A stretch of 42,707 nt of DNA. It comes from Jimgerdemannia flammicorona (Eukaryota). Position numbers and translations under genes: made by a program. Under the pieces are notes generated by a model that saw nothing but the letters and a program-made list of their open reading frames with translations, made no database searches and was not told the DNA's origin. Where the stretch lies: positions 1 through 42,707 of the forward strand of contig RBNJ01000086.1 of the NCBI GenBank assembly GCA_003990765.1, read 5' to 3'. Shown piece after piece: positions 10,263 through 40,315 of the stretch (positions are counted from its first letter, which is position 1; every line of letters begins with the position of its first letter).

Positions 10263-12003
10263 GTGAATCATAATTAGGCTTCGAAACGCATTATAATATA
10301 TTGGACCAGACGAGATTTCCGGCTCCGATTGAGCGACGTTACGTTGTTTCAACTTTAATTGCTACTTATGTTACCGCTAGGGGCGTCACAATGCCTCATG
10401 TGCTCAACTATGCCTATAGAGATGTGTTTAATTGTTCGTTTGTGAATCGTCATGACCCAGGCAACTTGAGGAGCAAAGCCTCCAACTCCGGGGAACGCGG
10501 AACATAATTATTTATAGTAAAGTTTGTGCATCCGATCTTCAGCCTTGATATAGAAAAGATTGCTGTTCCGTTTCTTTCAGTCAGCGATCTCTATCGAGTG
10601 GTTGCCGGGTCAAGTCGGTCCACTCACCCGAGTAAGATACCCTGGGTCGGGTTTCTTGTGTAGCCCGACCTGACCGCGACAGACCCGTGTCAAAAACAAG
10701 TCATAGAATTTTTACCACCACTCCCCAAAACGCAGCCCCCAGAATTATTCTCTCTATACCGATGCTCGTGATGGCATATATATGAGGTTAAAGCGATATT
10801 CTCTCGCACTATGACCGCCGAGTTCAGATATTCAGCGTCGGAGGAGATGGGGCTATGAAAATACAGGTGTCATCGCTAGTCTGCGCTTCATAATCATTCT
10901 ATGCTTACTCATCGTTCTGGACTTAGTCGTCGTTCTGTGTTTTAGTCGACCGTCCATTGTCCATCCTCCAACTCGTTAGCTTTAGTAGTAAATATGTTGT
11001 TATTTTATAATAATGAGAATTAAGATAGATTTATAGGCAAGCTGAATTTGGAGACACACATGCATTGAGAATATTAGAATCTACACCCCTACGAAACTAG
11101 GAACATCTGCATCGGGGCCATTGTGCATCCTGACTGACACTCTATATTGTCATCTGGGAATGACAAAATTTTTTCATGATGTGACCCGAGCTTTTGTTGA
11201 AAATCCGAGGGACTTAGTCAATTAGGCTTGGCTTACATAATAAATATTATACTACAGTTATATATATCCTTCTCAAATATTCATTGCACCAATGACAATG
11301 AATGATGGATGACCCTTTTTCAATATCTACATCAGAGCTAAGGTTAATATTAAAATTATTTTCAATAATATCTTTAACTGTTTTTTTTTTTTTAAAAAAA
11401 AAAATCAGTTTAGTATTTTTTCAACCAATTTTCCAAACTTTAGAAGTAACTTTTTGAAATCTTTATTTAATATGAATTTTAACTAAATGAAAATCTTTTA
11501 ATATTTGTAATATAATTTTTAGTTAATCTTGTTTAATCAATATAAGCTTTGAAGAAAATCTATATCTTTAACTCAAATTTACCTATATATATATCTCAGA
11601 GAGATAGAAATATTCTATTATTTAAAGATAGAGATCAATCTAATCTGATGACTTATAGAGTATATATAGTTCTTAATGAGTATAGAATAATATATAGTAT
11701 AATCTTTTTACAAACTTATAAATAATAGTCTAAATAGTATAATACATAGTAGATAAACTATTGTAACAGTGACCCCAGAATGATGACATCAGTACAGAAG
11801 ACAGCCTTTTCTTGCAAGCCATCAGATCAGAACACAAGAAGATCATACAGCATACAAGATGAGCAATGATGACTAACTGTGAGTCATTGTGACCACAGTA
11901 CAAGCATCCTGAAGAATATAAAAAAAGGATCAAGGAACTGTAGTAGCAGCAATCAACAAGAATCACCAATTCCAAATTAGTTCAAAGACTTACCACAAAT
12001 GAA

Positions 12004-13272
12004 ATGCCTACTGCCTGCCAAACCTCAAGATCAAGGAACCACCAAGGTATCTCAGTCGAAGAAAGAATGTTCCAAGATATCAGAAGAGCCATGAGGACCC
12101 ACTCAAGAAGAACTCCTAGTATCAACCTGGGTACTACAGACCTCTATCACTTTATCCTCTACCACTATGAAATGGAAACAAGAATCACCATTGCTACCGA
12201 ATGCCTCTAAATGTGGCAGGAGTACAAAATAGGAAACCTCCTTGGCTGGGAGTTCCCACAGGCCAGCACTTAAGAGCTACACGATACCACTCCCATGGAC
12301 ATACATGAGATAAGAATGGCCAAGAAGATCCATCAGATCTTCAGGCATATATCATAGTCAATTCTAGTGCTCTCAAACAAGTCAAATCAATTTGAATTAA
12401 ATCAAATTGAGGGTTAAATGAGTCGAATCAAATTGGGGATTTTTCAATTCAAATCAATTTGAATTGAATCAAAAGTCAAATCAAATTGAGGGTCTAATTC
12501 AAACCCTAATTTTCAAAATGCAATAACTCAGCATAAACTCATCCAAATCTAACATACTTTAGCTTGTTAGAATTACATTAATACGGTGAATCTAACAAGC
12601 TAAAATATGTTAAATTTGGATGAGTTTTCATTGAGTTATTACATTTTGAAAATTAAGGTTCAAATCTAACTTCGAATCGAATTGGACCTTTGATTCGATT
12701 TGAATTGAATCAAATTGGACCCTTGATTCAATCAAATCGAATTGAGTTTGGGCCAAATTCGATTTGATTCAATTCATTGGGAGTACTAGTCAATCCCCAA
12801 CTTGGAGTATGTCAGAGTCTCAGATTTCAGAGACCTATCATCCTACCATATCAATGCACTAGAAGCCAGGGTGGCCACAGAAGCTCAGTCCACTATCACT
12901 CTCAACAGTAATGAAGTAGAAGACTTCTGACATCCTATCCTTTAGGACAACCTAGACCAATTCCTACAAGGATTGATCTCAGTATTTCAAGGCCCAAGTA
13001 TCTAGGTTAAATCTCTCCAAGATCCCACATTTGTCCCCTACTTTGTGGAAGAGAATCTCATAGACTGGAGAGCTCCAGATCTTGTTCCCAATTTCCCTAC
13101 CACCGAATGTGATGACATCATTGGCGATGACATCATCCCATATGACATCAAAGTACATGAAACACATGAAGTACACAAAACATGCAACCTACATGATGAA
13201 TTCACAGATCTCATCTCTTTTAGTGATGATGATGATGATGAAGCCTCCATAATCCTGAACTTTCTGCTCTAA
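12004..13272 (+). pseudogene. LTR-embedded accessory ORF, family 2, copy A (~278 codons after removing the MITE)
   Basis: Runs from MPTACQTSRSRNHQG to EASIILNFLL*. Matches 24743-23946. Has transition-derived stops and is split by the MITE at 12365-12788. Confidence 0.8.
12365..12788. mobile_element. Non-autonomous hAT-type MITE, copy 1
   Basis: Terminal inverted repeats TAGTGCTCTCAA..TTGGGAGTACTA. 8-bp TSD GTCAATTC/GTCAATCC. Dense GAATC/GATTC subterminal repeats and an internal hairpin at ~12500-12660. The site is empty in LTR copy B. Confidence 0.88.
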
Positions 13273-13312
13273 GTTCTTTGTTATACTGAATAATGCCAGC
13301 ACCAGTATTCTC

Positions 13313-16300
13313 TTTTTTTTTTTTTTTTTTTTTTATAGTCACTTGGACTTGTCCTTTATTACACTCATCTATCCTATATAAATACAATGAACCCACCCCC
13401 TATCCAATCTCCCTAGGGGGGCCCCTCCTCCCTACCTTTTCTCGATGAAATACTACTCTATTGAATACAATCCCCACTCTCCCACCACTTTGTTCGCATA
13501 TCCTTACTACCAAACTGTACTGCTGCCCTCCTAAAAGACCCCAACCTATCCACCATCCAGTCAACAGATCCCCCAACAGCTCCTCCCACCTTACAACCTT
13601 CTCCTGCAGGCTCATCTGCCACCCCTCCTTAAACACAAAAAGCCAATATCCTACCAGACCCACTCAAACTGCTAACACCCACCCGACAGTGAGCCAACTA
13701 TCACCCACCCCCCCCACCAGCCGAGATCTCAAGTCCTCTCAGCAATCCCCTTCACCTGCTGGCCTGCACTCCACACCCAGTCTATTCTCTATTTCAACCC
13801 TAAAGTCCCCCAAAACCTCACACTCTCCCAGCCAATGTTCCGACATCTGCACCAAACCCCCAGCTTGCTCTACATTGTAATACTCCTTACAGTTGAAATA
13901 GCCACCATCCACCAGATGCCTGGTGTGGAAATTCAGCATGACATTCCTCCGCAGCAATCACTACCACACTACCCAGAACTTGTGGGGAAGCCACCATCGC
14001 ACCTCAGCACTCCAAGACCATATCCCTGCCCAGTTCCACTCCTTGCCAATCCTGACTGCCTGCCAACCACTTGGCCAAAGATCCTGGCCAAGACCCTGCT
14101 GATACTCCACTCCATCCCCAATATCAAAAGTGACAAATGGAGCACCCCCCAGAAGCAGTCTATCCCATCACCACATACAAGGACCCCACAACACCTCCCC
14201 CTCATTGCCTTGCCAGCACAGACCAATTCTGTATGCTCCATTGACCACTCTCCACCAAAAGCCCTTAAATCGCAGCCACCGAATTTCATTGAGCCCTACC
14301 AAAGAGAGTAGATCTCCTGAGGACCCTTGGGGGGAGGTTCTCATCTTCCACACCTTCTACATCAGAAGTATCCAACTCTCTCCCTATAGTTCAGCTGCTC
14401 TCTTCAACCACCAGGCTCACAAGCAGTACAACCTCTTAGGAAAATCCATAAGGCCAAGACCTCTCCTGTCCACTGGTGTTGCAAGAGTATCCCAACTGAT
14501 CTGAGACCTCCTTCCTGCCCAAATCCAATCCCTAGCCACCTTTGTCAGCCTCTTCACCACCCATGCTGGGAAGTCTAGGTGGTATGCCACATACCATAGC
14601 TTGGGGAACCAGTATGTATTCAGAATTGACATCCGCCCTACTAGAGAGATATGGCAGCCTCTCCAACCTCGAAGAGCCTCCCCCCAAATAGCCACTCTAC
14701 TCACCCACCACACTTATGGCAAGACAGAACCATATACAGAGAGGAAGATACCCAGATACCATACTACCTTACCAGTAGGGACAATTGTTCCAATGATGTC
14801 CCCACTCACCAGTCCATTCCCTAGCACCATAGTCTCACACTTATGCCAGTTGAGCTTTGCCCCAGAGTGAACCTCATACCATTCCACCATCTCTTTAAGT
14901 GCCTTGACATCTGCTACAAACCCAAGGCCAACCACTATATCATTCACAAAGGCCCCCACCTTCCACACTATGCCATAGATAGAGCCCCACCACCTTCTGG
15001 CGAATCCTATCCATTAACAGTTCCAATGAGAGAGTATAAAGAATAGGGGATAAGGGGTCCCCCTGAGGAACCCCTCTTCTCAAGGTAAATGCCTGACCAT
15101 GGTGACCATTATACATCAGTGCTGCCTGACTGCCCTCAAGCAGATTCACTATAGAAGCCTGAAATCCAGGAGGAACACCAATACAATCCAACACCTTGCC
15201 CAGCCAAACCCACTGGACCTGGTCATAGGCCTTCTCCTGGTCCAAAAAGACCAACCTTCCATCCAGGCCACAAGCCTGGCCCCTTCAATAATACTATGCA
15301 CCCAAGCAGTCCTATCTCTTATAAGCCTGCCTCTAACAAAGTCCTGCTGCTTCTCCCCTAGCACCTGTTGGGCAACCTTCTACAGCCTTGCAACAACCAC
15401 CTTAGTTACCATCTTCCTGTCCATGTTCAAAAGCATGATCAGTTGCCAGTTCTTCCAGTCTTCTCTCCTCCCCTTGTCTTTGTACAATAAAGCCACCAGC
15501 CCGAGGTCCTGCTCTCCAACCCACTCACCGCTCTGAAGGATATGATCACAGAGAGCAGTCATCTCCCCCAGAATGCTGGAGACCTTGACCATCCTCTTCC
15601 AGAAGTCCCATGGTAGTCCATCCTCCCCTGGTGCTGTTCCAGTTTTAGTTACCACAAGGATACTCTGGACCTCCTCACTTCGCACTGGTAAGGCCAAGTC
15701 ATCCAGTTTAGCCACTTGTAGCTGCCTCCATTCCCCTAATGCATCTTCAATAGCTGCCTCATCAGCACCCCCTTTATCCTCACTCCACAAACCCTGCCAT
15801 CTCTCTTTCAAAACCTCTAGGATTTGTTGCATGCCATGTACCATGTCTCCATCAGCATCGAGGACCCCATCCCACTGATGTCTCACCCTCCTAGCACTGA
15901 GCAGATGGGATAAATATCTAGTAGGCCACTCACCCTCCTCAAGTCCCTGCCACTATAGCCTAGCAGCTATACCTCACATATGTACCTCCTCCTCTTCTCT
16001 CATCACCTGTTGCAGTTCCAATATCTCCAACTTAATCTGTGCTAACCTCCAATCCTCCACTCCATCAGAAGTAAGCAAATCTGCCCAATTCATTTGCAAT
16101 CTCCTCAGCCTGCTGGAGGCATACCTCATACACTTCCTTCTCTATCTCCCAGCTTCTCTCCCAGTCTCTCCCCAATAGACCCTTACAGCCTCTTTCAATC
16201 TCATCCACCAGATGCCCACTGACAAGCCCTCACACCTCCAGTGAGAAACTTTCACCTGAATGTCCTCTACCCATGAATCCCACAACCCCTTCTCAGCCAG

Positions 16301-17419
16301 CAGAGAGGAGTTGAGGTGCCAATGTCTGGGTCCATCTCCACTCTCCCAAACTGCCCCTGTCCCAACAGTCTCCAGTGATCAGACCATGGGCACCATTCCA
16401 CCTCCAATACCTTCCAGACATCAGACCCCCAGCATTCTGCCATCAGAATCCAGTTAATCCTTGTACCCAAGCCATTCACCCAATGTGTGTAGACCCTGGA
16501 GTTGCCCCATCATATTCTACCCATATCCCCTAAGGAGCTCAGCCTCTCCACCTCCTCCCATACATCCAGGCCTCCACTTTTCCCTCCTACACTCCTCCCA
16601 TCATCAGTGTGGTCCAGATGCTGATCCCAAACCATATTAAAGTCCCCCCCAATCACATCGACCCCTTCTGCCAAGAGAACACCCTCCTCCAGCAGCTCCT
16701 CAATCCATACAATCCTCTCACCCCTAACTGCAGGGCAGTAGCAAGAGCCAACCCTCACCAACTCCCACCCTGGCCACTGCCAATCTCCTCAGACCAAGTG
16801 GTCACCCCAGCTCCTGATTCCCTCTAAGTCACCTCTACCCTTCCTCACCAGAATCACCACTTTTCCAAACCAAGCAGTAGCCCCACTCCATTCCTTAGTC
16901 CACTTCACCCAATCATCCTCATCCTCATACCGAACATCCTGTAGTAAAAAGAGATCAGTCTCCAATCCCTTGAGCCAAGTAAAAATGTTCTTATGCTGTC
17001 CAGAACCCCTCAACCCATTCACATTCAAAGAGAAAATGTTAGTTGTACTGTTCATAAGGAATAATGTTAAAAAGTGATCCCATCCTCTATAAGTCCACAT
17101 TCTGCTCCTCCTGCACCAAGTCCAATTCACATTCAGCAGCTAGTTTTCTTTCCCCAGCTTCCTGTGCCTCCAATCCTCCCAGAAGTTCTACCATTGCCTC
17201 ATCTTCCCTCTCCTCAAATTCCTCTTGATACTCCAAACAGGCTTCCCTCCAGAGCTGCAAACCATGTCACTCAGCCCAGCAGTATGTTGCCTGCTCACCT
17301 GCAGCCACCACCAGCTCTGCCTTTCTCACCTCATTGACCTCATATCCCTCCTCCTTTAAGAGGATCACAAGAATCTCCCCCCTCAGCGCCTCCACCACTC
17401 TCTCACCATGCAGAATCCA
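13313..17419 (-). mobile_element. L1/Tx1-like LINE, 5'-truncated, with degenerate ORF2 (APE endonuclease + RT)
   Basis: 22-nt poly(A) tail (T run 13313-13334). 13-bp TSD CACCAGTATTCTC/CACTGGTATTCTC. ORF2 starts at 17055 with IFSLNVNGL..LFLLQD, followed by GGDFNMV, APGEDGLP, LDQEKAYD, RGVPQGDPLSP and AFVNDIVV. Many transition-derived stops. Confidence 0.93.
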
Positions 17420-17667
17420 CACTGGTATTCTCATGTAACACTGAATAATACCAGCACTGGCATTCTGAGGTGATGTGAAATTGTTCCAGCACTGGTAATC
17501 TGATGTGATACTGAATTATACCAGCATCCTTAACCTGTACAATCATCAGTACTGACTCTGGAACTTAGTAGTTTTAGTTATTGGAATTTATATTTAGCTT
17601 TATATCTTAGCAACTATTGAATTATATTTTATATAAATATCCCTCTTATTTCCTCTAAAATAAAGTC

Positions 17668-18090
17668 AGTTCCTCTCAGTACAATATACACACTTTCTTG
17701 TAAGCAATCTAAGAGATAATAAGACAGTTTAAAGATAAGAAGTTTGAGGACTATAAGACCTTAGGAAGACACTCCAATAAGAACTTGCTTATAACAAACT
17801 TGAGTTAGTCTAAGAGATACACCTTGAAGAGAATCTGATATATTTGAAGGACTCAATGCCCACTATATGACAATGTGTATAATATAGTTCCTCTCAGTGC
17901 AATACATACACTTCCTTGCAAGAAATCTAAGAGATAACAAGACAGTTTAAAGATAAGAAGTTTGAGGACTATAAGACCTTGGGAAGGTACTCCAATAAGA
18001 ACTTACTTATAACAAACTTGAGTTAGTCTAAGAGATATACCTTGAAGAGAATCTGGTATATTTGAAGAACTCAGTGACCACTATGTAATA
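17668..18090 (+). repeat. Tandem duplication of the terminal 205 bp of solo LTR A
   Basis: 17668-17872 and 17886-18090 both run from AGTTCCTCTCAGT to the LTR end, separated by 13 nt. Confidence 0.88.
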
Positions 18091-18099
18091 CTATATATA

Positions 18100-20093
18100 T
18101 ATTAATAATTTGTATTATAACAAGTGAACACTATAGTATAGCTAGATAATATATAAAAGAATATATAACATATAGTTACTCACATATACTATAATTTATT
18201 TAAATAATTAGATATTCTAAATTAGATATTAATTTCATCTTAACTAAAATACTCATTCTAACTAAAACACTTGTTCTAACTAGAATACTTATCTTAAGTA
18301 AAATATCTGTCTTATAGAGAATAAGTATGTTCTACTATATACATATTCTATAATTATCCAGATAGCAAGTAGATAGTAACCATACTTATATAAAATATTC
18401 TAGAGATTTAAGTAAATAAATTATAGTCCAAAAAGTTCAAAAGCAAAAGACAAGTCTGCCTAATATACTTTAAGAGATATACCTGTTAAGAGCTATTTAA
18501 TTCTAAAGAAAAAGAATTATAATACTTAGAAGAAATATCTACTTTAAAGCTATTATTCAGAAGATTGTAAGCTTTGTTTAATTCTACTCTAATCTACTTT
18601 CTGATATAAAGAGAAGTCTGCTAATTTAGTCTACTTACTAGATTAAGCTAAAAGAACTTAAATTGTCTGATTTTGGTCTATTTATCAGACAAAGTCAGAA
18701 GAATTAAAAAATCTGCTATATTATATCAAACCTATATATTCTAATTAGAAAATTGCTAAATATTATCTACATTATATAAATAAGAGTATTTGTATCTATT
18801 TTGAAAGAAAAACTATTAAATATTTTATAACTTTTTGACCAAATAATTGTGGGCTCAAGCTAATCTATATAGCTGTCTCAATCTTATAATTTATCTTTAT
18901 TATATCAGTATATTATATTTTGGAGCTCAACTGGGAGGATTTCTGAACTTTTTAGCTCATAAGAATCTAATAGTCAAACTAGATACATATGTATTATAGA
19001 AGAAATAACTAAATTTCACACTATCTCTAAGATAATAGTATCTGAAGAAAGACTATTACTATCTCACCACATAAGTGATAGAATAATATCAGTAGATAAG
19101 AAGATATATAGTATCTTTGACTAATTAAATAACCATACTTATCCAAGCTCTCTACCTTAGTATCAAAACAAACAAACCTATAAAAGACCTCTACTTTATA
19201 CTATTTAAAGACAAAACAGACTAAGTAAAATATTTATAAAATAAGTTAATACCAATTACTATACTAATAGATGAAATAATAATCAGAACTCAGACAATAC
19301 TCTCAATAATAATGAATACTATAAGATTGAAGATCTCTATATAACTATAGGCTCACAAGTAGAGAAAGTTATCACACATTTTATAGATATAGCTGCTCAA
19401 TAGTGGTGCAACTTTTTAGTATATCCTCTCACTTAGAAAATCTACATCAAAATTGATATATATAAAGAAAATAACAATCACCCTAACTATGAAGTCCACC
19501 TAGCTATCATGGGCCTAAAAGAGCTGATCATTTAATAGTTTTGCAGCTCTGTCTATATTGTCAAAGCCAGAACAAAGCTCAAAAACCTCTGATTCTATAA
19601 TAATAGAAAAAAAGACTTGGAAGTATTTGCAATAAGATTAAAAACTCTTCTAAATATTATAGAAGTAGAATATAGCCAATGAGAACAAACTATAAATATA
19701 ACCAGAGTAGTATACTTTGTTACTATCTCTAGATAATTATCAGAAAAGATCTAGGAGTAAGAATAACTCTACAATTGTCTATATGTATAAGTAATAATAC
19801 TTAAGACAAGCTATTATCAGAGCACATATTATCTTAGTAGCTCAAAGACTAAGAAATAATAGAAATAACAATAAAGGAGACAAGTAACATCAATTTAAAA
19901 AGAGATATGAATTTTAGAATAACTCCTCAAAATTATAAGAAGGATTTAAGAAATTGTCTAATAAGAAAATAGAGAAACTTATAAAGAAAAGAGTATATTT
20001 CTCTGCAAAAAGAGGAGATATATATCTTGCAAATATTCTGACAAGTAGACCAATATGAACAAAGGACCATTCTTCTTATATACTATTACTCTA
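18100..20093 (+). mobile_element. Highly decayed Gypsy remnant (LTR end, tRNA-Pro PBS, gag), probably continuing after 27394
   Basis: TATTATA-TTT-TGGAGCTCAACTGGGA at 18911-18936 mirrors CACCACA-TTT-TGGGGGCTCAACTGGGA of the intact Gypsy. Gag-like residue follows, with a decayed zinc-knuckle trace at ~19990-20045. The left boundary is uncertain. Confidence 0.55.
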
Positions 20094-20265
20094 TATTAGA
20101 AAGAGGGGTATTTTTATTGAGTTTATATAGGATATATATTTTATATATTGCTGATAGATAATGTAAAACTGATGAAATTATCAATTATGTGTTGATATAT
20201 TGAGTTGCCATCCCAACACTCTCACTCAATAAGATATGTATACAAAAAAGAATATAAAATATACT

Positions 20266-20266
<1 letters not shown>

Positions 20267-20332
<66 letters not shown>
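20267..20332 (+). repeat. 66-nt poly(A) run inside the Copia 3' untranslated region
   Basis: Uninterrupted A run. Confidence 0.9.
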
Positions 20333-20335
<3 letters not shown>

Positions 20336-28520: not shown

Positions 28521-28528
28521 TATTTATA
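28521..28528 (-). promoter_or_regulatory. Candidate main LTR TATA box (TATAAATA); equivalent at 38751-38758
   Basis: Minus-strand GTATAAATAACCC lies downstream of the LTR ORF. The family-2 LTR has a matching TATAAATA at the analogous position (17632). Confidence 0.55.
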
Positions 28529-30085: not shown

Positions 30086-30096
30086 TCTGCCCCTTG
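30086..30096 (-). other. Polypurine tract
   Basis: Minus-strand AAGGGGCAGA immediately before the TGTGA start of the 3' LTR. Confidence 0.75.
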
Positions 30097-30409
30097 CAAA
30101 ATTAGAGCCATCCTCAGCAGTGAGGGTTACACAGAGTTGGGTGGTCTTAACTCCAGGGACGAGCAGAATGTCAGCACATTTGTAAGGACTGCCCATCCTT
30201 GTCTAGAGCAAGGGCTTCCATAGTCGCAGCTGGGGGTTTGAACCTATCAGAATAGTATTTCTTGTAATCTGAGGCAATTTCTTAGTAACAATATCTGTCA
30301 TGTGGATGGGCTTGAGTCTGGTTCCAACATTGTTAGCTTTCTTGAGTTCCGAGTGAAATGTCTGTCATATCTCCAATGGAGATGACACAGACAGAGTGAA
30401 CAGGATTGT

Positions 30410-33130
30410 TCAAATGCATTTTACTTCTCTTGAGTAGTAGAGTCTTATGCGGTTGTGGTGTATCTTGGTCTTGAGTATAACTCCATCCAAGGTCTTAAGT
30501 TGATAAGTATGGTTTGAGAATACTTGGTGTATGAGATAGGGGTCTTCCCATTTTGGTTTAAGCTTGGCACTCCAATTTCCTTCTATGATGGTACGGTACA
30601 CCAGAACCTTTTGTTCAATGAGCAGGGGTTCAAGGTCGGCTTTGCGGTTGTAGTATCTCTTTTGTCGTTCTTGTGTCTTGACAATAAATCCTCGTGCCTG
30701 CTGGCATACATTGTGTAACCGGGTGATCTCTTCTGTGACTCACTTTGACAGATCTAGCTGGACTGATTCAGTAGGATCTTGTGCTTCTTGGCCATATACC
30801 AAATAGAAGGGGGTCTGTTGGGTAGCAGTTGCCTTAGAGGTACGGATGCTAAACAGAATTGCTGGTAGATAGATATCCCAGTTTAGTTGATCTCTGGTTC
30901 TACTGAGACCTCACTTGATGGTCTGGTTCATTCATTCAGTGAGTCCATTTGCCTGTGGGTGGTAGGCTGTTGTTGGTCGTAGCTTGATCTTGAAGTTGCT
31001 CGCAAAGGTCTTCATGGCTTGGTTGATGAATTCTCGGTCTTGATCTATAATGATTTCCTTGGGCACACCATGGCGGCTGAAAATTTCATCATACAGGATC
31101 CCAATAATTGTCTGGGCATTGGCAGTCTCAATGGCAAAAGCTTCCGGCCATTTTGTCAGGTGGTCTTTGATAGTGAGGATGTAGTGTCTTCCTCAGCTGG
31201 TTACTGGTAGGGGTCCAATAATGTCTATTCCCAGTCTTTGAAAGGCTCCAGCTGGTGCTGCAATTGGTATTAATGGTGCTCTGTCGGTAGGCTTTTGTCG
31301 GTATCTTTGGCAGGTATCACATTGTTGAATGTGTGTTGAAATTTGTTTTCTCATCTTGGGTCACCAGTATTGCTTCTTGATTCTTGCGATTGTGGTGCCA
31401 ATTCCTCAGTGTGCATTTTGGTCATGATTTGTTGTCAGGATCTTCAATATTTCTTCTTCTCTTGGAACTCGGGTATACTGCTCTCTATCTACTCTCTAAA
31501 GTTTGCCATCGCCTTCTTGGAATTTCTTGAAATTCCTTTGGATAAATAACTTGTGGGCTGGTTGGATTCCTTTCTTGAAGCTTCTATGGTGCAGACTCCA
31601 GGTGAGGGCGAGGCACAATTCTTGGTTCATTTGGGTGAGCGGGAAGCAGCCTTCTCTTGTGGGGGCTCCTTCCCTTCTTGTTGGTTTTGCAGGATTCTTG
31701 ACAGGATATCAACATTGGAATTCTTAGTACCTTTCTTGTAGACAATAGTGAACTGATATTCTTGCAGAGACATGATCCATCTAGCGAAGATTCCTGAGGG
31801 CTCCGGCTTATTGAATAACTATTGTAGAGCTTGATGGTCAGTAATGAGAGCGAATCTCTTTCCCAAGAGATAGTGTCAGAAGTGGTCCACAGCCCAAACT
31901 ACTGCTAGGCATTCCAACTTAGTGGCTCCATAGTTTGCTTGTGTTTCATTTGTGGTCTTGCTAGCATATTTGATAACATGCTCCCTCTTCTGGTCATCTT
32001 GCTGAGACAGAATTGATCCAAGTCCTAAGGCTGAGGCATCAGTTGCCAGGATGAATGGTTTGCCAAAGTCTGGTCACACCAGGACAGGGGCTTCAGTAAG
32101 GGCCTTCTTGAGTAGGTTGAATGACTTTTGTTGTTCTTCTTTTCAGTAGAATGGTTGGTCCTTCTTGGAGATATCTCGAAGAGGTGCTGCCTTATCTGAA
32201 AACCTTGGGATGAATTGTCAATAGTAGGATTCCAGCATAAGGAAAGATAGGGTCTCCTTTGCTGAGGTTGGGGTTGGGTAGTTCTTGACTTTCTCCACCT
32301 TGCAGGGGTTGGTATGTGTTCCTTGAGCTGAGACAACATATCTCAGATATTTGACTTAATGTTTTCTGAAGAAGCACTTCTTGGCATTGAGTCTGAGTCC
32401 TGAATTTCGGATGGTATTGAATACTTCACGGAGGTCTTGCAAATGCTGCTTGAATGTCTCAGAGTAGATGATTACATCATCTATGTACACTAGTACATTT
32501 CTTCCAATGAGGTCCCAGTAGACATAGTTCATCATTCATTGGAATGAGGTGGGTGCATTGCAGAGTCCAAAGGGTATTCATAGGTATTCATACTGTCCTC
32601 ATCTGGTGATGAAGGCTATCTTGCAGATATCTTCTTTGGCAATGGGTATTACTTGGAATCCTTGGAACTGGTCAGTAGTGGTCATGTATTTGGCTTTTCC
32701 AAGGACATTGATAAGGTCATCAATTCTTAGCAGTGGGTAGGCATCTTCTGTGGTGACTTTGTTGAGTTTTCTGAAATCCACGACTAATCTCCATTCTCCT
32801 TTCTTTGGTACTATGATTGCTAGTGAAGCCCAGGGGCTTGATGATGGTCTGATGACTCTATTTCATAGCATTTCATCTATGTATTGTTGTTCGAATTCAA
32901 TCAGATGATGTGGTGTTCAGTAGGGTCATTGTCGGATTGGTCTTGCATCTCCAGTATGTATAGAGTGTTCTCCGTATTGATATGGTGGGAAGTTATCATA
33001 TGTGGTGGTAAATATATCTTTATACTCCTCTATCAACTCTTGTATCTGTTATTGCTGGTCCTTGGTTAGAGTTGTCTCAATGTTGACGGCTTTGATTACT
33101 GAATTTGCTGAGTCTTCCTCTCTGGTACCA
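30410..33130 (-). pseudogene. pol: Gypsy pol: reverse transcriptase, RNase H, integrase
   Basis: SSPWAS, VDFRKLNKVT..DAYPL.RIDD, PFGLCNAP, VYIDDVII (~32480), ATDAS, ECLAVVWAV, ITDHQAL, an HHCC region (~31420-31310), IDIIGPLP, YHPQANGLTE and a C-terminal PKWEDPY. Multiple stops. Confidence 0.93.
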
Positions 33131-33530
33131 TCAGTCTCACTGGAGAGGACTTGCCATTTCTCAAGAATTCAAAGACTTCTTCCTCATAGGTATCTATCAG
33201 TGGTTCGAAATATCCCATTGTTGTTCCCTTGGGGATAGTTATTACTTCAAAGCCCAAGTTTCTGATAGAGATGTGGATTGGTGACATCTGGTCATGAATT
33301 TGTTCTTCAGCCAGGAGGATGTAGTATTCCTTTTGAAGCTCCAGTGATGGTGCAAATATTAAGTTGTTTGCTTCTACTGGTAGGTGCACATCTAGGCCTT
33401 TTTGCTAGTAGGGCTGCAGGAGGATGTCTTCTCTTGCTCAGATTGGGCGATAGATATGGGGTCTCATTTGTCGGAATTGAGCAACTATTGCTAAATGAAC
33501 CTCAATAGGTGGTGTCCATAGATTTCTATT

Positions 33531-33941
33531 GGTGCTTCCAAAGCCTCCTTGTCCTCTGTTGGTATCTTCTAGTTGGTCTACCTCTTAGATAGTCAGCTGT
33601 GATGTCTTGATAAACAGGATTTGGCAGATGGCTTCCATAGAACTGAAGAATTGGCTGGTTCTACTAGAATTGCAGATAATGGCCTTCAAGGGACCTCAGT
33701 AGTCCTGATCAATGACTCCTCCTTCTACTGTGACTCCTTTGGTTGCCAATGAGGATCTTGAGGCCAATTGTCTATAATGCCCAGGTGGTATAGTGAATGC
33801 GATCTGTAGGTCGAAAGTCCTGGTACTTCTGGGTCGGATTCTTGCTTGGTAGGGGAGGCAGAGGTCATAACCAACTGATCCTTCTGTTTGTGCAAGAGGT
33901 GGCTGTGCCCAGGGTGAAAGCAGCTTGATCTGGATAATTGG
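33531..33941 (-). pseudogene. dut: dUTPase domain within the Gypsy polyprotein
   Basis: All five motifs in one frame: GSVGYDL, ASRSSLA, GGVIDQDY*G, AICQIL and RGQGGFGST. The stops are TGA and TAA, consistent with CGA and CAA. Confidence 0.93.
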
Positions 33942-35093
33942 TTAAGCTTTGAGAAATGGTGCTTCAGCTGTTGCCATTGTAGGTGAGAAGTCCATGCGCT
34001 CCGGTTTGAAGAAAGGCCAGTGAGCTCCTGTCTTTGAGTTTCTTGTGTAATTGAATCCAGTCTTTCCTAGAGGGTCCAGAGCTTCTATAAGAATGAAGGC
34101 AAGATTGATATCTTCTTTTCCTTGATGAGGGCAGCAGTACCAGCAAATGATGGCAAGAACTTCCAATGGTAGGTCCCAGATAGAGGTCTTGCTCTTGAAC
34201 TTACAATCTCCTTCATGGTTGATTTCTTTGCACTTCTGATAGGCCCAGCGAATTCGAGGTTCTTGCAGGGTGGGATCCTTTCTCTTGACTTGGCTCTTGT
34301 AGACATCTTCGCTGAGGTGAACATCTCGATGTTCATACCAGTAGCAGGTAAAGGTTTTTCCACAATCACAATGTCCCTTCTTGACAAAGTCTTCATTTTG
34401 CTGTCTGACCTCCTTACTGGTAGGGAATCTCTTCCGATACTTATCATAGGTGGGCTGTGTGATCTAGAGGGCCCGAGTGATAGTGTAAGAGCTGTTGCTT
34501 TCTCCTTTGATGGTAAGAGACTCGAATGTTTGGCAGGCAAGGATCTTCTGTCCTTCCTTATAGGTCTTCTTAAAGGTCTTCGGGGTTGGAGGTTGTATTT
34601 GGCTGTGGGATGGTGCTTTCTTCAATTCGTCCTTATCATCAATTTCTGGCATTGGAACCTTCTTGAGATCCAGGATTCGGCAATTGCTGCAATTATCTCT
34701 TGGTGAGTGAAAGCTGATGAAATGTTCACATATGCCTTGATGAAAGGCTCATATGATCTGATTTTCTACCAGTGGTGGTGGTGGTTGAGCAGAAGGTCCT
34801 GTAAACTCAAGTGCTGCCCTTGTATTAATGGCTCTATCAATGCTTTCTTCTATATCTTCAACACTAATAACTCCAATGAAAGAGTCTTCTTGTTTGCTTT
34901 CTTGGTCCCTTGGGGCATCGAAATCACTTCCTAGTTCTTGTAGGAAATTGGCCTCGCTTTCATCCTCAGTAGTAGTGGGGGTGTCGCCATGTCCTTGCCA
35001 TTCTGTTTCTGAGGCTTGATTCATCTTTTTGGATAATCCTTTTGAGTCAATGGGCACCTTGTGCTTCTGTCTATGAATGGAGAAGACCAGGAG

Positions 35094-35400
35094 TTATTTC
35101 TTGATATCTATATTGGCTCCAACTTGGCTTAACCAGTCAGTTCCCAGAATCAGGTCATAGGAGGTTGCGGGGGTCATGACAGCTTTGGGTACATTGAGGC
35201 AGGCCTTTCCAACTTGAATGGGGATGTCTCTGACAAGTCCAAGGGGTGTGGAAGCTGATCCGTCAGCCATGATAACTCTTGCTTTGGTTCCTTCATCTAT
35301 TCCCCATCCAATTTGCTCCAATATCCTTTGGGTGATGATGCATACTGCTGCTCCAGTATCGATGAGAATTCTGGTATTTTTACCATGCACTTTTCCATTG
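35094..35400 (-). pseudogene. Gypsy aspartic protease
   Basis: ILIDTGAAVCII..MADGS..PLG..YDLILGTDWL. Confidence 0.9.
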
Positions 35401-35636
35401 GCAAGTCTTGTAGATTGATGTTCATATTGCTGACTCTCATGGGCTGTGTGGATAGTACTAGGTTCTTGAGTGTGTAGTCCTTGGACTGGAAGTCTCTTAG
35501 TATCTTCTTTGGCTTCTTTCAGGAATTTTCGCCTGACCTCTGGTGCATTCTTGAGGACTTGCTCAACTGTAAGACCAGCATTCTATAGGCGGATATGTTC
35601 CCAAAGTGAGGCTGCTGCATGGGGCTTGCTGCTTCT

Positions 35637-37895
35637 TCAGTATCTTGGTCCCTTGGGGTATAGTCTCTCATTCCTGATAGGCATTTCATCAGCTGAAGAT
35701 TCTATGCTCATATGCTCATCTTCTTCAAGGTCTGGCAGAGTAGAGCTGGGGGTTATCCTAGATGGTCCAGCTTCTGGTTCAGGAGTATCTCTTCTAACTT
35801 GCTTCTCCTGTTCTTGTAGAGTGTCTGAAGAAGAATGACCATGTTGTGGATGCTTGCCTGTGGATATTATTACTGGCAGTTGAGGTGGGGGGTTCCTTCG
35901 TGGTCTTCCTTGTCCTCTGGTCTCTGCAGGGGCAGCTTCCCATGTCACCTTGGATGGAAAAGCCTCGAAGTATGAGTAGATGTCATCTTCTTGACCATGG
36001 AGCCAGGCTGCTTCTTCTTCCATTTCCTGAGTCTCTTCATCTACCTGAAAGAGGTTGACATTTCTGTCATTGGACTGGGTGGATTGGTTCCTTGGACAAT
36101 TCCTCTGGATGTGGCCTTGATTTCTGCAGTTGAAGCAGGTGGGACTATAGGAACCAGTCGCTGATGAGACTATAGTTGCAGCTGGTAGTGCAGGAGCAGG
36201 ACCTCTGTTGTCTTGTTGCTAGTAGTCTGGTCTGTTATCATGATGGTAGTCTTGTTGTCTTCTTCCTTGGTTCTTCAGCTGGGCAACTGCGATGGCCAGG
36301 TCCTTCATTTGCTTGGTGAGTATTGTCATGGAGTCTTCTTGACCTCTTGATGGTGGCTGCTGCTGTGGTTGCCTGAATGGAGTCAGATTTGTGGGTGCTG
36401 GTCTGTTCTCATAGTTGGCAATCTGGGCTCTGAGGAAGGCATTCTCTTGCTCCATAGTTATTCCTTGGGTCCTTGGGGTTTCAGCTCAGATTGACTCATG
36501 ATAGCCTTGTACTTATTGTACTGGTCTATAATCTGCTTCCCAACATCCTTGTGCTCCAGCAACTTGCTGTTCAATGTTTCAATATCTCATCCTGATAACT
36601 TGCCTTTGGAGTTCTGGGTATAAGCCATTGAGGAAGGTAGTTGAAGCTAGAGCCAGTTGGACTGCTGGTTGAAGGTTCGCCTTGATCATTTGAGCTTGAA
36701 TCTGATGGTAGAAACTCTTGGGAGTTTCATTGGCAGCTTGGCTCATGTAGGTCAAAGCCTCCTGTGCTTCTTGTTGGTGCTCAAATCCATTGAACTGAGC
36801 ACGGAGCCAGGCTTTGTGAATCATGTACCTTGCTACATGGTTTCTATCAGATTGAAGGCTGTCATTCAGTTCCTCTGCATGGATTCCTCCTCCGGCTTGC
36901 TTGACTTGATTATACCTCTGTAGGGCTGGTCCTCTCAGGAGTGACTCTACAATTCTGAGTTTTCTTGCAGCATCCCATTGTTTGGCGGCTGCTTGAACTT
37001 CAATTTCTCTAAAGAATTCCTTGATATCTTCATTGTCTGCACCATGGAACTTCTGAAGGTAGCTCATGTCTGGCTTATCTTCACTATCTGAGTATTGTTC
37101 AGGGGTAGGGGATTGGCAGATCCTCAGGGTGATGGGGAAGGTAGTGGTGCTAGTACTTGATGATCTAGTGGTACTGGCAGAGGGTAGTGTCTTGGTGAGG
37201 ATGAGGGTAATCTGGCTCTTCTAATTAATGCTGGAGTTGAAGTCCTGGGTAGTGGTGGAGATCTTCTGATAGACTGGTGATAGTGGCAAGGTGTGAGTGA
37301 TCAGGGTACTGAAGTTCGAGCAACTGATGGTGGGAGTGGACTGATACATATAACTGATAGTGAGTTCATCTGCCCCTTGCTGTTGTGAAGTAGTGAGGTC
37401 TTGTTTGCCTTGTTGTGAGTCAGTGTTGCTGTCTGGATAATAGTATAGGTTGAATTCGTCCCTTTGATGGTCTGATCCCCAATCATCATCTTGCTCTGGT
37501 TGATATGGATGATAGTCCTCTTCTCCTTCTGATGTTTCAAAGTATACCCAGTCTAGTGGAGTGACTCGAGTAATAACAGTAGTTATGTAGTTACTTCTGT
37601 CTGAGTTCTTCCTATGGATAAGGGTCTGATACTCTTTGGGGATATCCTCTTCTTCTTCTTGGCCTAAGTCTTGGATCTGAAGGGGCAGTTCTGGTTGTCC
37701 TCTGAGTCGTCTCCTTTCTCTTGAAGTCAAACCATAATCTGGGTCACTTCTTTCTTCTGATTCGGTTTTCTGGCTACTGGTGTTGAGTAGGGTCCTAGCT
37801 ACTGTTCTGACAAGAGTGTGGGCTTTCTTTTCTGCTGAGGAGGGCTGTTGCTGCCCCTGGTTTGGTTGCTGACTTAGTCCTGCTAAGTTCTCCAC
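35637..37895 (-). pseudogene. gag: Gypsy gag (capsid-like region + CCHC knuckle) with a long in-frame acidic N-terminal extension
   Basis: LQKFHGADNEDIKEFF..LRGPALQRY..QAANETPKSFY..FLNGL and CFNCRNQGHIQRNC at 36137-36096. Same frame as the protease. Confidence 0.85.
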
Positions 37896-37945
37896 TGTAG
37901 ATAGCTGGGTTCTTGAGCCAAATGGTCAAGTCTTTTAAAAAACTT

Positions 37946-37962
37946 TCCCAGTTGAGCCCCCA
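37946..37962 (-). other. Primer-binding site, tRNA-Pro type
   Basis: TGGGGGCTCAACTGGGA lies 3 nt after the LTR end. It resembles the canonical tRNA-Pro PBS TGGGGGCTCGTCCGGGAT with CpG decay. Confidence 0.8.
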
Positions 37963-37965
37963 AAA

Positions 37966-40315
37966 TGTGGTGTGCGGTTTGTATCCCTAGTTCTCTTCAA
38001 GCATGGCTCAATGTGCCACTTGGTGAAGCACATGAAGGATGTGAGTGCATTCATGATGGTTACGGGTTGATAGTCACATGATCGGGTCATTCGAAACATG
38101 CAATATTTGATATTAGTGGTTGTTCGATTGTTCAATGGCTCAATATCCAGTGGAAAAGGGTGTTCCTGGCAGCAATTAACTTGGCGGCGAACTTGAATTT
38201 ATACGGCAATGATGGGCTTGGCTTTAAGTGGTTCGTGGTGCAGTAGGTCGGGAAAACAGAGGTTGACAGCTCGCTCATCTGTCTTGACTTGTTAACTTGA
38301 AAGGTTCTGGGCGGTCATTCATGTAGGCTGGCAGGTCGGTCTTTGGCAGTCTAGTATCCTTTGGCTGAGTATCCTAGGGTTTCCGGGTCTTGAATCTCGA
38401 ATGGCAGTCGAATGTGCGGTCTGAATGGTGGTCTGAATGCATGGTGGTCGTGGTCTTGAATTCCTTGGCTGGGTCTCGAGTCTCGAATGGCAGTCGAATG
38501 GCGGTCCGAATGCACGGCGGTTGTGGTCTTGAATCCTTGGCTGGGTCTCGGGTCTCGAATGGTGGTTGAATGGCGGCGGTTGGGTAATGTTTTCTTTCCG
38601 TGGTAAGAGAAAATTCTTTAACTCAAACTTCTGAGCAATCCATTGCTCTAGGTTGTTATCTTGTTCTCAGAATTTTTCTGGTCTCTTGGAGGCAGTGGTT
38701 TCTTTGTAAACTAGAACTGACTGAGGTTTATTCACTCTAAGAATATGGGTTATTTATACAAGTTTGCTAGCTATGGATGCGGCTAAGGTATACTACATTG
38801 TGGCAAACATTTGCTATGCTATTGGCTTGCATGATGCAAGGTGCAGGCTATTGTTTACTATGGATTGGGTTGTAGGGGATAGCAACACTGGATTTGGATG
38901 AGCAGACATAAATGCTGATTATTGCCAGAAATGGTTGTGGAGGGTGGCAATGCTGAAAACAGGTGTTGCTGACTTGCTGACAAATGTGGGATCACTGAAT
39001 TGAGATAGGGCGAGTGCCAGTGCTGGATTCGGTTGTTGGAGGTGGTATCACTGGAAACAGATGTTACTGACTTGCTGACAAACGATGGCTAACCGGACTG
39101 AGGAAGTGGACATTGGATCACTGAATGGTAAAGTACCCTTTGTCAATGAACCAATCATCTTGCTGGGTTGTGATCTCTTTATTCCATTCTTCAAAGGGTG
39201 GGAGCGCCAGCCAGGAGGTGAGGGGGTAGAAAAGTGGCCAGTCATCTTCAACAACATTCTCCAACCCTTGAACAGCTTGAATGCGGACAGAGGACTGGTA
39301 GACTCTCTGTTGCTCCTCTTCTTCTTCTGAAGACTCATCAGTTTCAGTGTCAGAGGGAGTTTCTTCAGAGGCAGGGTCTTGGGGTTCTTGGACTTCCTCT
39401 TCAAAGACAGGGACCTCTTGGGCTTCTTCTTGATTCGGTTCCCAAATGATGAGATATGAATTGTGGCTGGCAGGGTGGTGGGTGGTTGGGGTAGCTCCAA
39501 CGGGTGCTTCTATGGTAATAGGCGGTCCTTCAAATATCTCCATAAGACTCATTAGGTGACCTTGATGATTGTCTCGGAGTGGGGTAGTGTGGAAACCTGG
39601 CTGAGTAGGTTCGGTTTGTTGGCTTCCTATGGTGACACTGTTGCTGCCAATAGAGTTGGCTACTTCAGATTCTATCCAGTCAGCATCTTCGGTTGAAAGG
39701 CAGGAGAGGCTACCAGCTGTTACTCCTTGCAAGTATGCTATGGCCCAGGGAATATGGCAGAAGATTTGGTGGACACAGAGGGCTCTCTTGATTAGCCAGC
39801 TGGTGGTTAACAATTTGGTAATGAGGTCTTCCCGGTCGTCTTCTTGAGTCTCATTGCGAAGGTGGTGTCTGATTTTGTAGTCATGCCAGAGGGTCATTTA
39901 TTCGGTAGTGTCTTTAAGCTGTTGGGTCATTATATACCAGTAGTTGATGAAGTGTCCAAGGTCCTCGGTGTAGAAGTTCAAGTGTTCAGAAGTATCTGGG
40001 TGCTAGATGACCTTCTTGATAGCTTCAAAGATCAGGGTCTTTGGGCCAGGCAAAGGAGTAGAGTGGCAGGAGGTCTGGTTGGATCGGCGAATGGGAGACA
40101 TTGTGTGGTGGATACTTGGTTCTTTGGTGCTGATCCCTGAGGCAGAGTATGGTTCCTTAAATAATGGTCTTCATTTTAGCTCAGATCATCTTATCTTCTT
40201 TTGGCGAAATCACTTGACGGATTGGGCTGGTCACCAGTTATCATGCTATAATGTCGTCTGATCTTGTGGTCGCAGAATACTCCGAATTTGGATAGGGTTG
40301 ATTGTAGATGTCACA
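37966..40315 (-). repeat. 5' LTR of the Gypsy element (2350 bp)
   Basis: Direct repeat of 27736-30085, adjacent to the PBS. Confidence 0.95.
39118..40101 (-). pseudogene. LTR-embedded accessory ORF, family 1, 5' LTR copy
   Basis: ATG at 40101. Stops near 40004 and at 39898-39900 are sense codons in the 3' LTR. The remaining 259 codons are open. Confidence 0.85.

Follow-up and report, generated by a model that had tools for sequence, protein, structure and literature searches.

Mouse mammary tumor virus (MMTV) carries a superantigen ORF, sag, in the U3 region of its LTR; the two LTRs each contain it, as do solo LTRs, and reverse transcription itself does not require it. The nef gene of HIV/SIV and bel/tas of the foamy viruses are 3' accessory genes that lie downstream of pol and overlap U3, and several retroviral 3' accessory genes have acidic activation or adaptor regions and act in trans. 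In the part of the literature that was searched, an ORF inside the LTR is essentially that of MMTV sag only. In plant LTR retrotransposons, aORFs of unknown function are conserved in most copies of a family and usually lie 3' of pol, in either orientation, in the stretch that separates it from the 3' LTR; the review contains no wording that puts them “in”, “within” or “inside the LTR” (PMC7264820). According to passages on bdelloid rotifers, ORF3 types are common to unrelated retroelements, some lineages of which also have a dUTPase; located between pol and LTR, these ORF3s show enzymatic or env-like domains that can be recognised (PMC5408684). Ty3/gypsy elements bearing a dUTPase are described from fungi (PosPlaTy3-5 of Postia, elements of Phanerochaete, Tmt1 of Tuber); the passages that deal with them mention no gene inside the LTR, and a figure legend lists an “add. 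ORF” of unknown function at a position that it does not give (PMC2864245).

In the window (the whole stretch of 42,707 nt that was analysed) we found four copies of a protein gene that had not been described before. It appears to be an accessory of mobile elements rather than a host gene.

Two LTR families with one reading frame

The family-1 element is a Ty3/gypsy-type LTR retrotransposon, as seen from its paired TG..CA LTRs, the flanking repeat, the gene order and PBS- and PPT-like sites. Self-blastn identifies its LTRs as direct repeats of 2350 nt (27736-30085 vs 37966-40315) with 92% identity, whose TG..CA termini read TGTG...CACA. The element is bracketed on both sides by the 8-nt repeat GTATATAT and lies in AT-rich DNA; target duplications usually measure 4-6 nt, and that of family 1 is longer. 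On the minus strand the Pfam matches follow the order zf-CCHC, aspartic protease, dUTPase, RVT_1 and rve. No passing Pfam match was obtained for RNase H in this element, nor for a chromodomain among 141 frames of at least 75 aa; pol is heavily degraded and contains many stops.

27736-40315, minus strand: family-1 LTR retrotransposon, 12,580 nt, Ty3/gypsy gene order
37966-40315, minus strand: family-1 5' LTR, 2350 nt (repeat pair and TG..CA ends)
about 37946-37962, minus strand: PBS-like TGG..., 3 nt past the inner end of the 5' LTR (sequence reading)
35640-36218, minus strand: zf-CCHC (Pfam)
35097-35582, minus strand: aspartic protease (Pfam)
33699-33941, minus strand: dUTPase (Pfam)
32602-32862, minus strand: RVT_1 (Pfam)
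30935-31192, minus strand: rve (Pfam)
30086-30097, minus strand: PPT-like purine-rich tract adjoining the 3' LTR (sequence reading)
27736-30085, minus strand: family-1 3' LTR, 2350 nt (repeat pair and TG..CA ends)
38408-38576, minus strand: tandem repeat with a 72-nt unit (2.3 copies) in the 3' portion of the 5' LTR
28193-28346: counterpart of this tandem repeat in the 3' LTR
1-679, plus strand: a third family-1-like LTR, clipped by the window edge so that its 3' part remains (LTR nt about 1750-2350), terminating in ...ACACCACA
11762-18090, plus strand: family-2 unit, copy 1 (self-blastn, end and flank reading)
23441-24965, minus strand: family-2 unit, copy 2, 1525 nt, TG..CA ends, 4-nt flanking repeats
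39118-40101, minus strand: ORF of the family-1 5' LTR, LTR nt 215-1198, 327 codons
28888-29871, minus strand: ORF of the family-1 3' LTR
12004-13272, plus strand: ORF of family-2 copy 1
23946-24743, minus strand: ORF of family-2 copy 2, LTR nt 223-1020, 265 codons
38715-38761, minus strand: putative core promoter/poly(A) block TTGTATAAATA..AATAAA..TCAGTCAGTT of the family-1 5' LTR, LTR nt about 1555-1601
28485-28531: promoter/poly(A) block of the family-1 3' LTR, identical in sequence to that of the 5' LTR
23643-23684, minus strand: block TTGTATAAATA..AATAAA..TCAGTT of family-2 copy 2, LTR nt about 1282-1323

Family 2 consists of two mutually inverted, solo-LTR-like units of about 1525 nt, which are bounded by TG..CA (TGTAA...GTGACA) and flanked by 4-nt repeats; in AT-rich DNA, chance may account for so short a match. 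Because the window contains no full family-2 element, we only infer that these units are LTRs. Copy 1, with CTAT on both sides, is split twice, at about 12345-12790 by a 432-nt insert and at 13312-17433 by a LINE. Its LTR-like parts (11762-13311 and 17467-17872) are followed by a 13-nt spacer, after which the last ~205 nt are repeated at 17886-18090. Copy 2 is nested in a degraded, AT-rich copia element, whose Pol_BBD domain is placed at 25463-25870 by Pfam.

A homologous ORF is present in sense orientation in all four repeats, that is, in the two family-1 LTRs and the two family-2 units. The four copies that an earlier note on this DNA had reported were thus recovered, at 12004-13272 (+), 24743-23946 (-), 40101-39118 (-) and 29871-28888 (-). 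All are pseudogenes with one to six stops, and none is intact over its full length. The copy in the family-1 5' LTR has stops at codons 33 (TAG) and 68 (TAA), past the second of which a 259-aa ORF remains (39897-39118); the copy in the 3' LTR has stops at codons 6 (TGA) and 167 (TAG). In family 2, copy 1 has six in-frame stops and the 432-nt insert, and copy 2 a single stop at codon 178 (TAA). Matching blocks quoted in the earlier note are present in the translations, but one of its strings, LQDNPDQFLQGLISVFQGPSI, occurs literally in neither family-2 copy: it blends both: in copy 2 the second Q is replaced by a stop, and copy 1 has a stop and an earlier L.

The two families place the frame alike. 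It starts 215 nt (family 1) and 223 nt (family 2) from the 5' end of the LTR and lies wholly inside it, spanning nt 215-1198 of 2350 and nt 223-1020 of 1525, respectively. In both, a TTGTATAAATA..AATAAA..TCAGT block follows 260-360 nt past the ORF; the blocks of the two families are collinear, with an alignment (42 nt, 66.7%, E=0.51) that is not significant alone. Because the ORF lies upstream of the shared TATAAATA..AATAAA block, it probably sits in U3, judging from sequence; alternatively, the block could serve as a 3'-end signal. Given nearly the same ORF offset, the same orientation and the same block, the two families appear to be branches of a single clade in which the gene was inherited, as opposed to independent holders of it.

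Protein conservation and decay of the copies

A local Smith-Waterman alignment (BLOSUM62) of the family-1 3'-LTR copy with family-2 copy 2 scored 182, compared to 34.6±5.3 for shuffled sequences (z=28; shuffle maximum 79; none of 2000 as high), and the 259-aa family-1 ORF scored 134 (z=20, again 0/2000). The protein homology proposed in the earlier note is thus borne out, at 29% amino-acid identity. Its remark on little visible nucleotide similarity holds as well: self-blastn with word size 11 found no match between the families in the window, and with word size 7 the best one (99 nt, 58.6% identity, E=0.02), the sole one near significance, falls within the ORF at collinear positions (LTR nt 373-471 vs 368-466). 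The LTRs of the two families show no convincing similarity over their initial ~220 nt.

Over 175 aligned codons of family 1 and family 2, nucleotide identity at codon positions 1, 2 and 3 is 45.1, 57.1 and 33.1%. Simulated neutral drift to 45.1% identity, run with no indels, gave scores of 66±25, with 0/200 reaching 182; with a transition bias the scores were 94±32 and 4/200 reached 182, which is not overwhelming. Small indels between the family-2 copies are multiples of three in six of six cases inside the ORF and in one of five outside (p=0.015, Fisher test by hand). The codon-position pattern, the drift simulation and the in-frame indels point to past purifying selection on the LTR-borne protein.

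The copies in the window record a different regime. Between the two family-1 LTRs there are 189 differing sites, 186 of them transitions, and no indels, and choosing C/G at every differing site yields a 327-codon frame with no stops; the window copies were disabled almost solely by C>T/G>A transitions. Among the ORF changes in this pair, 22 of 61 are synonymous (31% expected, p=0.41) and four are stops. The ORF is less diverged than the rest of the LTR (61/984 vs 128/1366 sites), which may be due to the CpG-rich repeats downstream. CpG observed/expected is 0.02-0.29 in the ORF copies and surrounding transposons, compared to 1.09 in the host-gene region. Selection acted only while the elements were active, and the copies in the window drifted neutrally once inserted; of the purifying selection claimed in the earlier note, the protein-level constraint stands, but it does not extend to these inserted copies.

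A search of 1,835,955,588 proteins returned 11 representatives at E<=0.001, all of them no longer than 342 aa and without other domains. The database relatives (n=15) were compared as protein sequences, and those of 271-342 aa in public sets are labelled hypothetical proteins only. Uninterrupted relatives elsewhere have 325, 271 and 342 aa and a Met-Pro start in common. An alignment across at least three subfamilies is collinear over about 270 columns, and the start is conserved. The tails of the full-length relatives have net charges of -26, -14 and -18, in agreement with the acidic tails described in the earlier note. In an AlphaFold model built from an 18-row alignment, residues 11-170 are all helical (pLDDT 75-95), while residues 229-328 are below 50. 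A protein of about 270-340 aa is thus predicted, which begins with Met-Pro, forms a helical core over ~150 residues and ends in an acidic, disordered tail.

Pfam gave no convincing family match for any member, PDB sequences no match, and a fold search no match at E<=0.001 in PDB or BFVD. Language-model recognition scores are low; the nearest clusters are hypothetical proteins of Basidiomycota (0.86), which is a lead only. The earlier note had tentatively likened the pattern A-x-K-I-x-x-I/L-F...I..L...LS to that of expanded uncharacterised proteins of arbuscular mycorrhizal fungi. This likeness was not borne out, with no Pfam family and just 11 representatives in 1.84 billion proteins, counted irrespective of taxon. 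Homology to a large annotated family of Glomeromycotina was likewise not found in Pfam or among the 1,835,955,588 proteins, with hits again counted irrespective of taxon.

Origin of the shared gene

We consider it rather probable that an ancestral accessory gene was embedded in the LTR, likely in U3, of one probably fungal Ty3/gypsy clade and was inherited by both families. Elements of this clade would carry a third sense-strand gene lying wholly in the LTR, most likely in U3, and in the element RNA it would come after pol and the polypurine tract, as retroviral 3' accessory genes do. Both families would have received it from one ancestral element, after which the non-coding parts of the LTR would have diverged past recognition, while the protein was kept by purifying selection as the lineages transposed, and inserted copies would have decayed neutrally under a C>T/G>A hypermutation process. 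In this scheme, the descent of both LTR architectures from one ancestor is inferred, as is the way in which the gene is expressed.

It is unlikely that unrelated LTR families gained the gene separately, from a host, or one from the other through recombination or template switching. Such independent capture or horizontal exchange would fit the remaining LTR DNA, which is without detectable similarity, and the differences in LTR length (2350 vs 1525 nt) and flanking repeat (8 vs 4 nt), and the shared extra ORFs of bdelloid rotifer retroelements offer a precedent (PMC5408684). However, the ORF offsets are nearly equal (215 vs 223 nt), the orientation and the downstream TATA/AATAAA block are the same, and the few database representatives, short and devoid of other domains, include no host-gene-like homologue. 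Moreover, 29% amino-acid identity implies a split old enough for total loss of non-coding LTR similarity.

Very unlikely is a separate small element or cassette nested into ancestral LTRs, or a family 2 made of non-LTR, non-autonomous, gene-carrying repeats. Family 2 is known in the window only as isolated inverted units, never around an internal region, and its copy 1 hosts other nested sequences (the LINE and the 432-nt insert). Yet in neither LTR is the ORF framed by repeat boundaries, terminal repeats or target duplications, and, like family 1, the family-2 units end in TG..CA as LTRs do, have flanking repeats (here of 4 nt) and contain a TATA/AATAAA block.

Domestication, in which an LTR-derived host gene family would be maintained by host-level selection, is highly improbable. 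Public protein sets do contain uninterrupted relatives (271-342 aa), annotated as hypothetical proteins only, which would suit it, but the four window copies are all pseudogenes inside LTR boundaries, decay neutrally and are as CpG-depleted as the surrounding transposons (0.02-0.29 vs 1.09 in the host-gene region). That the frames are leftovers of no functional gene, similar in protein through shared DNA ancestry alone, is barely credible: every window copy is broken, a first AlphaFold model was poor (pLDDT 37) and recognition scores are low, but the codon-position identities (45/57/33%) with the drift simulation, small indels exclusively in frame, a conserved start with collinear alignment over about 270 columns in at least three subfamilies, and a helical core that was modelled with confidence after more diverse sequences had been included all argue against it.

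For a gene inherited within the LTR, we would guess that the protein has a regulatory or adaptor role and works in trans on behalf of the element, perhaps by activating the LTR promoter through its acidic tail; that it is a transcriptional activator is a guess, and a doubtful one. Could every LTR of the clade, solo LTRs included, even be a complete gene cassette that combines a promoter of its own, a protein gene under selection and 3'-end signals? We regard this as quite unlikely. If it were so, the remainder of the element might not be needed to make the protein, which would represent a new retroelement factor of orphan fold, perhaps directed against the C>T hypermutation/methylation defence of the host, and a fungal counterpart of retroviral accessory proteins.

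Significance and comparison with known systems

Extra genes in LTR retrotransposons are few and mostly without known function, and a conserved gene inside the LTR is described, in the part of the literature searched, only for a mammalian retrovirus. If selection maintains an LTR gene in a fungal gypsy clade, this would give a handle on what elements need beyond gag and pol, solo LTRs would be able to scatter protein-coding sequence through a genome, and annotators would be warned that such hypothetical proteins are transposon genes. LTR families without alignable DNA can still be related via a protein.

Like sag of MMTV, the ORF described here is a complete sense-strand protein gene wholly within the LTR, although its U3 placement is deduced and not mapped. 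The two differ in that no sequence or fold relation was found (Pfam; PDB/BFVD fold search), and in their settings, a mammalian host in one case and a fungus-like genome with a Ty3/gypsy carrier without env in the other. By analogy, nef of HIV/SIV and bel/tas of foamy viruses may be compared to it as genes downstream of pol and in or into U3, but no homology to them was found. The plant aORFs share with it the character of a conserved extra ORF but not the position, as our ORF begins 215 nt inside the LTR and pol stops about 325 nt before the LTR. The fungal dUTPase-bearing gypsy elements resemble family 1 in the dUTPase between protease and reverse transcriptase. As with the bdelloid ORF3s, the same extra ORF occurs in seemingly unrelated retroelement families; here, however, it encodes an orphan protein, and the shared LTR architecture favours inheritance over exchange.

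The LTR-borne ORF and its protein

The ORF, a probable accessory gene that lies in sense orientation inside the LTRs and is present in four decayed copies, encodes homologous proteins in family 1 (a Ty3/gypsy-type element at 27736-40315, minus strand) and in family 2 (two inverted solo-LTR-like units), as claimed in the earlier note. The two proteins are 27-29% identical over ~175-270 codons, and the shuffle test of their alignment was significant: the local score of 182 compares with 34.6 ± 5.3 for shuffled sequences, and none of 2000 shuffles exceeded 79. The accompanying claim of little nucleotide similarity between the LTR families also held, as none is detected by blastn at word size 11, and the best match at word size 7 covers 99 nt within the ORF at 58.6% identity (E = 0.02). 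A further match at this word size, 42 nt long and non-significant (E = 0.51), lies over the TTGTATAAATA..AATAAA..TCAGT block 3' of the ORF. An alignment of the two families over the initial ~230 nt of their LTRs revealed no convincing conservation.

The gene start is placed upstream of the start of the 259-aa ORF because three full-length relatives from public protein sets, P0001 (325 aa), P0005 (271 aa) and P0008 (342 aa), extend there. In family 1 it corresponds to the ATG at 40101 and 29871, in family 2 to that at 24743 and 12004. Counted from the LTR start, the sense-strand ORF spans nt 215-1198 of the 2350-nt LTR (family 1) and nt 223-1020 of the 1525-nt LTR (family 2).

Among 1.84 billion representatives, searched exhaustively with a profile, 11 proteins had E ≤ 0.001 (five of them E ≤ 1e-30), none longer than 342 aa, and a word-indexed search with the profile of the 18-row alignment, the broader family alignment, returned two proteins, both already known. 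Pfam assigned the ORF to no family when 141 frames of the window were scanned. A Pfam search with each of the 18 family members (E ≤ 5) gave six unrelated families with one member each (best E 0.029), PDB sequences yielded a single match to the profile at E = 1.8, and the top ESM Atlas look-alikes of the database relatives P0008 and P0004 scored 0.88 and 0.86, below the meaningful level. The likeness to proteins of arbuscular mycorrhizal fungi, which the earlier note had offered, found no support in the Pfam and exhaustive profile searches. The genomes of these fungi have a much higher AT content than the genes in the window. The possibility that the ORF is a duplicate of gag was dropped after a profile comparison with the gag of the element showed no relation; the ORF profile likewise showed none to a 234-aa frame upstream of gag.

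A first AlphaFold model based on an 11-row alignment (pLDDT 37) was discarded, and a second one based on the 18-row alignment reached a pLDDT of 65. In the latter, residues 11-170 form a core that is helical throughout and predicted with confidence (pLDDT 75-95), while the C-terminal part is disordered. Foldseek searches with this model gave 0 matches with E ≤ 0.001 in PDB and BFVD, libraries without predicted cellular proteins, from which a fungal fold relative could escape. The tail is strongly acidic, with a net charge of -14 to -26, as had been read by eye. A helical domain with an acidic disordered tail would suit a transcriptional activator or adaptor, a guess to which we give a low probability. 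The C-terminal tails of P0004-P0006, P0008, P0009 and the window copy at 23949-24209 (minus strand) contain D-L-I-(S/N/T)-F, then acidic residues and, at the end, (I/V)LNF(L/T); this short motif might serve in binding as a linear motif. It recurs in families 2 and 3, with the tails being otherwise poorly conserved. The recurrence in the tails of the short motifs DLIxF and acidic-aromatic-x-x-aliphatic proves nothing.

The carrier elements and their surroundings

Self-comparison of the window revealed a direct repeat (27736-30085 vs. 37966-40315) of 2350 nt that is 92% identical with 0 gap columns. Both copies of this LTR start with TGTG and end with CACA, and the pair is flanked by the 8-nt GTATATAT. 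A Pfam scan of 141 frames of at least 75 aa in the window identified gag (zinc knuckle), aspartic protease, dUTPase, RT and the integrase core, which follow each other in gypsy order on the minus strand of the interior. A primer-binding-like site starting with TGG adjoins the 5' LTR, and a purine tract adjoins the 3' LTR. On these grounds family 1 is a genuine Ty3/gypsy-type element, 12,580 nt long, with a pol broken up by stops.

Features of family 1 and of a related LTR
33699-33941, minus: dUTPase domain of pol, between protease and RT (Pfam, E = 1e-14)
37224-37925, minus: 234-aa open frame without Pfam match, between primer-binding site and gag core
1-679, plus: third family-1-like LTR (3' part, fifth repeat unit), cut by the window edge

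According to PMC2864245 and PMC5408684, a dUTPase between protease and RT is known from basidiomycete elements and from Tuber Tmt1, and the protease-dUTPase-RT layout is on record for few fungal gypsy elements. For the 234-aa frame, a long extension of gag at its N-terminus or a further element-specific region would be possible. The LTR fragment at 1-679 has a patchy identity of 67-92% to family 1. Because CpG is still abundant in it, unlike in the other copies, it may belong to a younger or unmutated subfamily.

Within the window there is no full family-2 element, and the two units look like solo or truncated LTRs. Copy 2 is nested within a degraded AT-rich copia element, while copy 1 has been disrupted by a LINE insertion, a 432-nt insert and a tandem duplication of its terminal ~205-218 nt.

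Features of family 2
11762-18090, plus: copy 1, in opposite orientation to copy 2
23441-24965, minus: copy 2, 1525 nt, TG..CA ends, 4-nt flanking repeats
13312-17433, minus: LINE-type element inside copy 1 (RVT_1 14943-15284; endonuclease 16792-17139)
12345-12790: 432-nt insert in the ORF of copy 1, sharing 117 nt (90%) and 131 nt (85%) with 20971-21211
17668-18084: tandem duplication at the 3' end of the copy-1 LTR, 218-nt unit, 1.9 copies

The LINE has a poly-A tail at its left end (poly-T on the plus strand) and is bordered by a ~33-nt repeat, which may be a target duplication or may belong to the 35-nt tandem repeat of the LTR itself (17420-17526). The 432-nt insert may be a small unclassified repeat. 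The duplication unit begins exactly after AATAAAGTC and extends 13 nt beyond the LTR terminus; a deleted element (5' LTR and end of the 3' LTR) or a reverse-transcription accident may be its origin. CTAT (plus strand) is found at all four family-2 flanks (11758-11761, 18091-18094, 23437-23440 and 24966-24969). Flanking repeats of one inserted unit are expected to match each other; the identity between the two pairs is due either to chance in AT-rich DNA or to target preference or rearrangement.

Host-like genes and other sequence
7988-10214, minus: carboxylesterase gene, intron-split, at least four exons
3327-3929, plus: weak tryptophan-halogenase-like frame, below the Pfam cut-off
5958-6737, plus: intact host-like 259-aa ORF without family match, acidic Ser/Asp-rich end
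18103-27735: AT-rich tract (26-36% GC) with copia-type remains (minus)
25463-25870, minus: copia Pol_BBD in this tract
23255-23485, minus: integrase-like frame of the copia remains, read by eye, no Pfam match
20096-20220 and 27272-27396: possible LTR remnant pair of the copia remains, 82% identical
20267-20332: poly-A run, 66 nt
41368-42216: small direct and inverted repeats (~120-200 nt, 86-87% identical) in the AT-rich right flank

The host genes have a GC content of 47% and normal CpG. Along with the intron-split carboxylesterase gene, the CpG depletion of the transposons and the dUTPase position in family 1, this suggests a fungal host. Tandem repeats of 18/35 nt accompany the small repeats at 41368-42216.

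Past selection and decay after insertion

The earlier note had proposed purifying selection on the LTR-borne gene. For the past, four lines of evidence point to such selection on the protein: the codon-position pattern, a drift simulation, in-frame indels and uninterrupted relatives. In the codon alignment of family 1 with family 2, nucleotide identity at codon positions 1, 2 and 3 is 45.1%, 57.1% and 33.1%, respectively. When the family-1 ORF was drifted neutrally, without indels, to 45.1% identity, the protein score fell to 66 ± 25 and 0 of 200 runs reached 182; under a four-fold transition bias the score was 94 ± 32, and 4 of 200 runs reached this value. All six small indels between the ORFs of the two family-2 copies are multiples of three (3, 6, 33, 3, 3, 3), compared to one of five in non-coding sequence (20, 18, 16, 22, 4; Fisher p = 0.015, calculated by hand). 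Finally, relatives from at least three subfamilies have uninterrupted frames and a common Met-Pro start.

For the present the proposal does not stand, as the changes since insertion fit the neutral expectation. There are 189 differences between the two family-1 LTRs (186 transitions), with the changes concentrated at CpG (70/110 sites) and CpA (94/381), and the family-2 copies (11762-13311 vs. 23907-24965) differ by 136 transitions among 148 differences. If C or G is assumed to be ancestral wherever the two family-1 LTRs differ, their 327-codon frame is free of stops. The ORF of this family has since acquired 22 synonymous and 39 non-synonymous changes, the latter including 4 stops, and the synonymous fraction fits the 31% expected from mutation context (p = 0.41, context-weighted test). 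This test replaced the Nei-Gojobori estimate for the two family-1 LTRs (dN/dS 0.46), which, with nearly every mutation being a transition, is no evidence of selection. The four ORF copies contain 2 and 2 stops in family 1, 1 in family-2 copy 2 and 6 in family-2 copy 1.

One result is contrary: within the family-1 LTR pair, divergence is lower in the ORF (6.2%) than in the rest of the LTR (9.4%). The excess outside the ORF is located in CpG-rich tandem-repeat bins of the LTR, and we read the gap as a probable difference in mutable sites. Taken together, the evidence for past constraint and the neutral changes since insertion argue that the ORF was kept during element replication and is now decaying along with the rest of the elements. 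The CpG observed/expected ratio is 0.02-0.29 in the transposons vs. 1.09 in the gene-bearing left 10 kb. The transition excess and the CpG depletion are the signature of RIP-like or methylation-driven deamination, so that LTR divergence is unusable as a clock here.

Position within the LTR and known extra ORFs

Both families have TATAAATA followed ~20-25 nt on by AATAAA and then by TCAGT, with the block lying 360 nt past the ORF in family 1 and 263 nt past it in family 2. In retroviral LTRs with a very short R, the TATA box precedes a poly(A) signal that lies just 5' of the cap site. If the block is read in this way, the ORF would lie in U3, leaving an R-U5 of ~205 nt in family 2 and ~750 nt in family 1. 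The start of the duplication in family-2 copy 1 exactly after AATAAAGTC would fit an RNA end at this position. Equally, the block may be a fungal 3'-end signal; the initial 215 nt would then contain the promoter, and every LTR would be a self-contained transcription unit.

The extra ORFs of plant LTR retrotransposons are described in PMC7264820 as residing between pol and the 3' LTR, whereas the ORF described here lies wholly inside the LTR. ORF3 types common to unrelated families are reported for bdelloid retroelements in PMC5408684. The fungal "LTR ORF" of PMC12037069 is not a parallel, as the phrase there denotes pol frames. In the full-text literature searched, a gene wholly inside an LTR is essentially represented by MMTV sag alone, which shares this position with our ORF. 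Extra ORFs in LTR retrotransposons are already known; what appears to be new here is an LTR-embedded accessory gene of a fungal-type gypsy clade that encodes an orphan protein.
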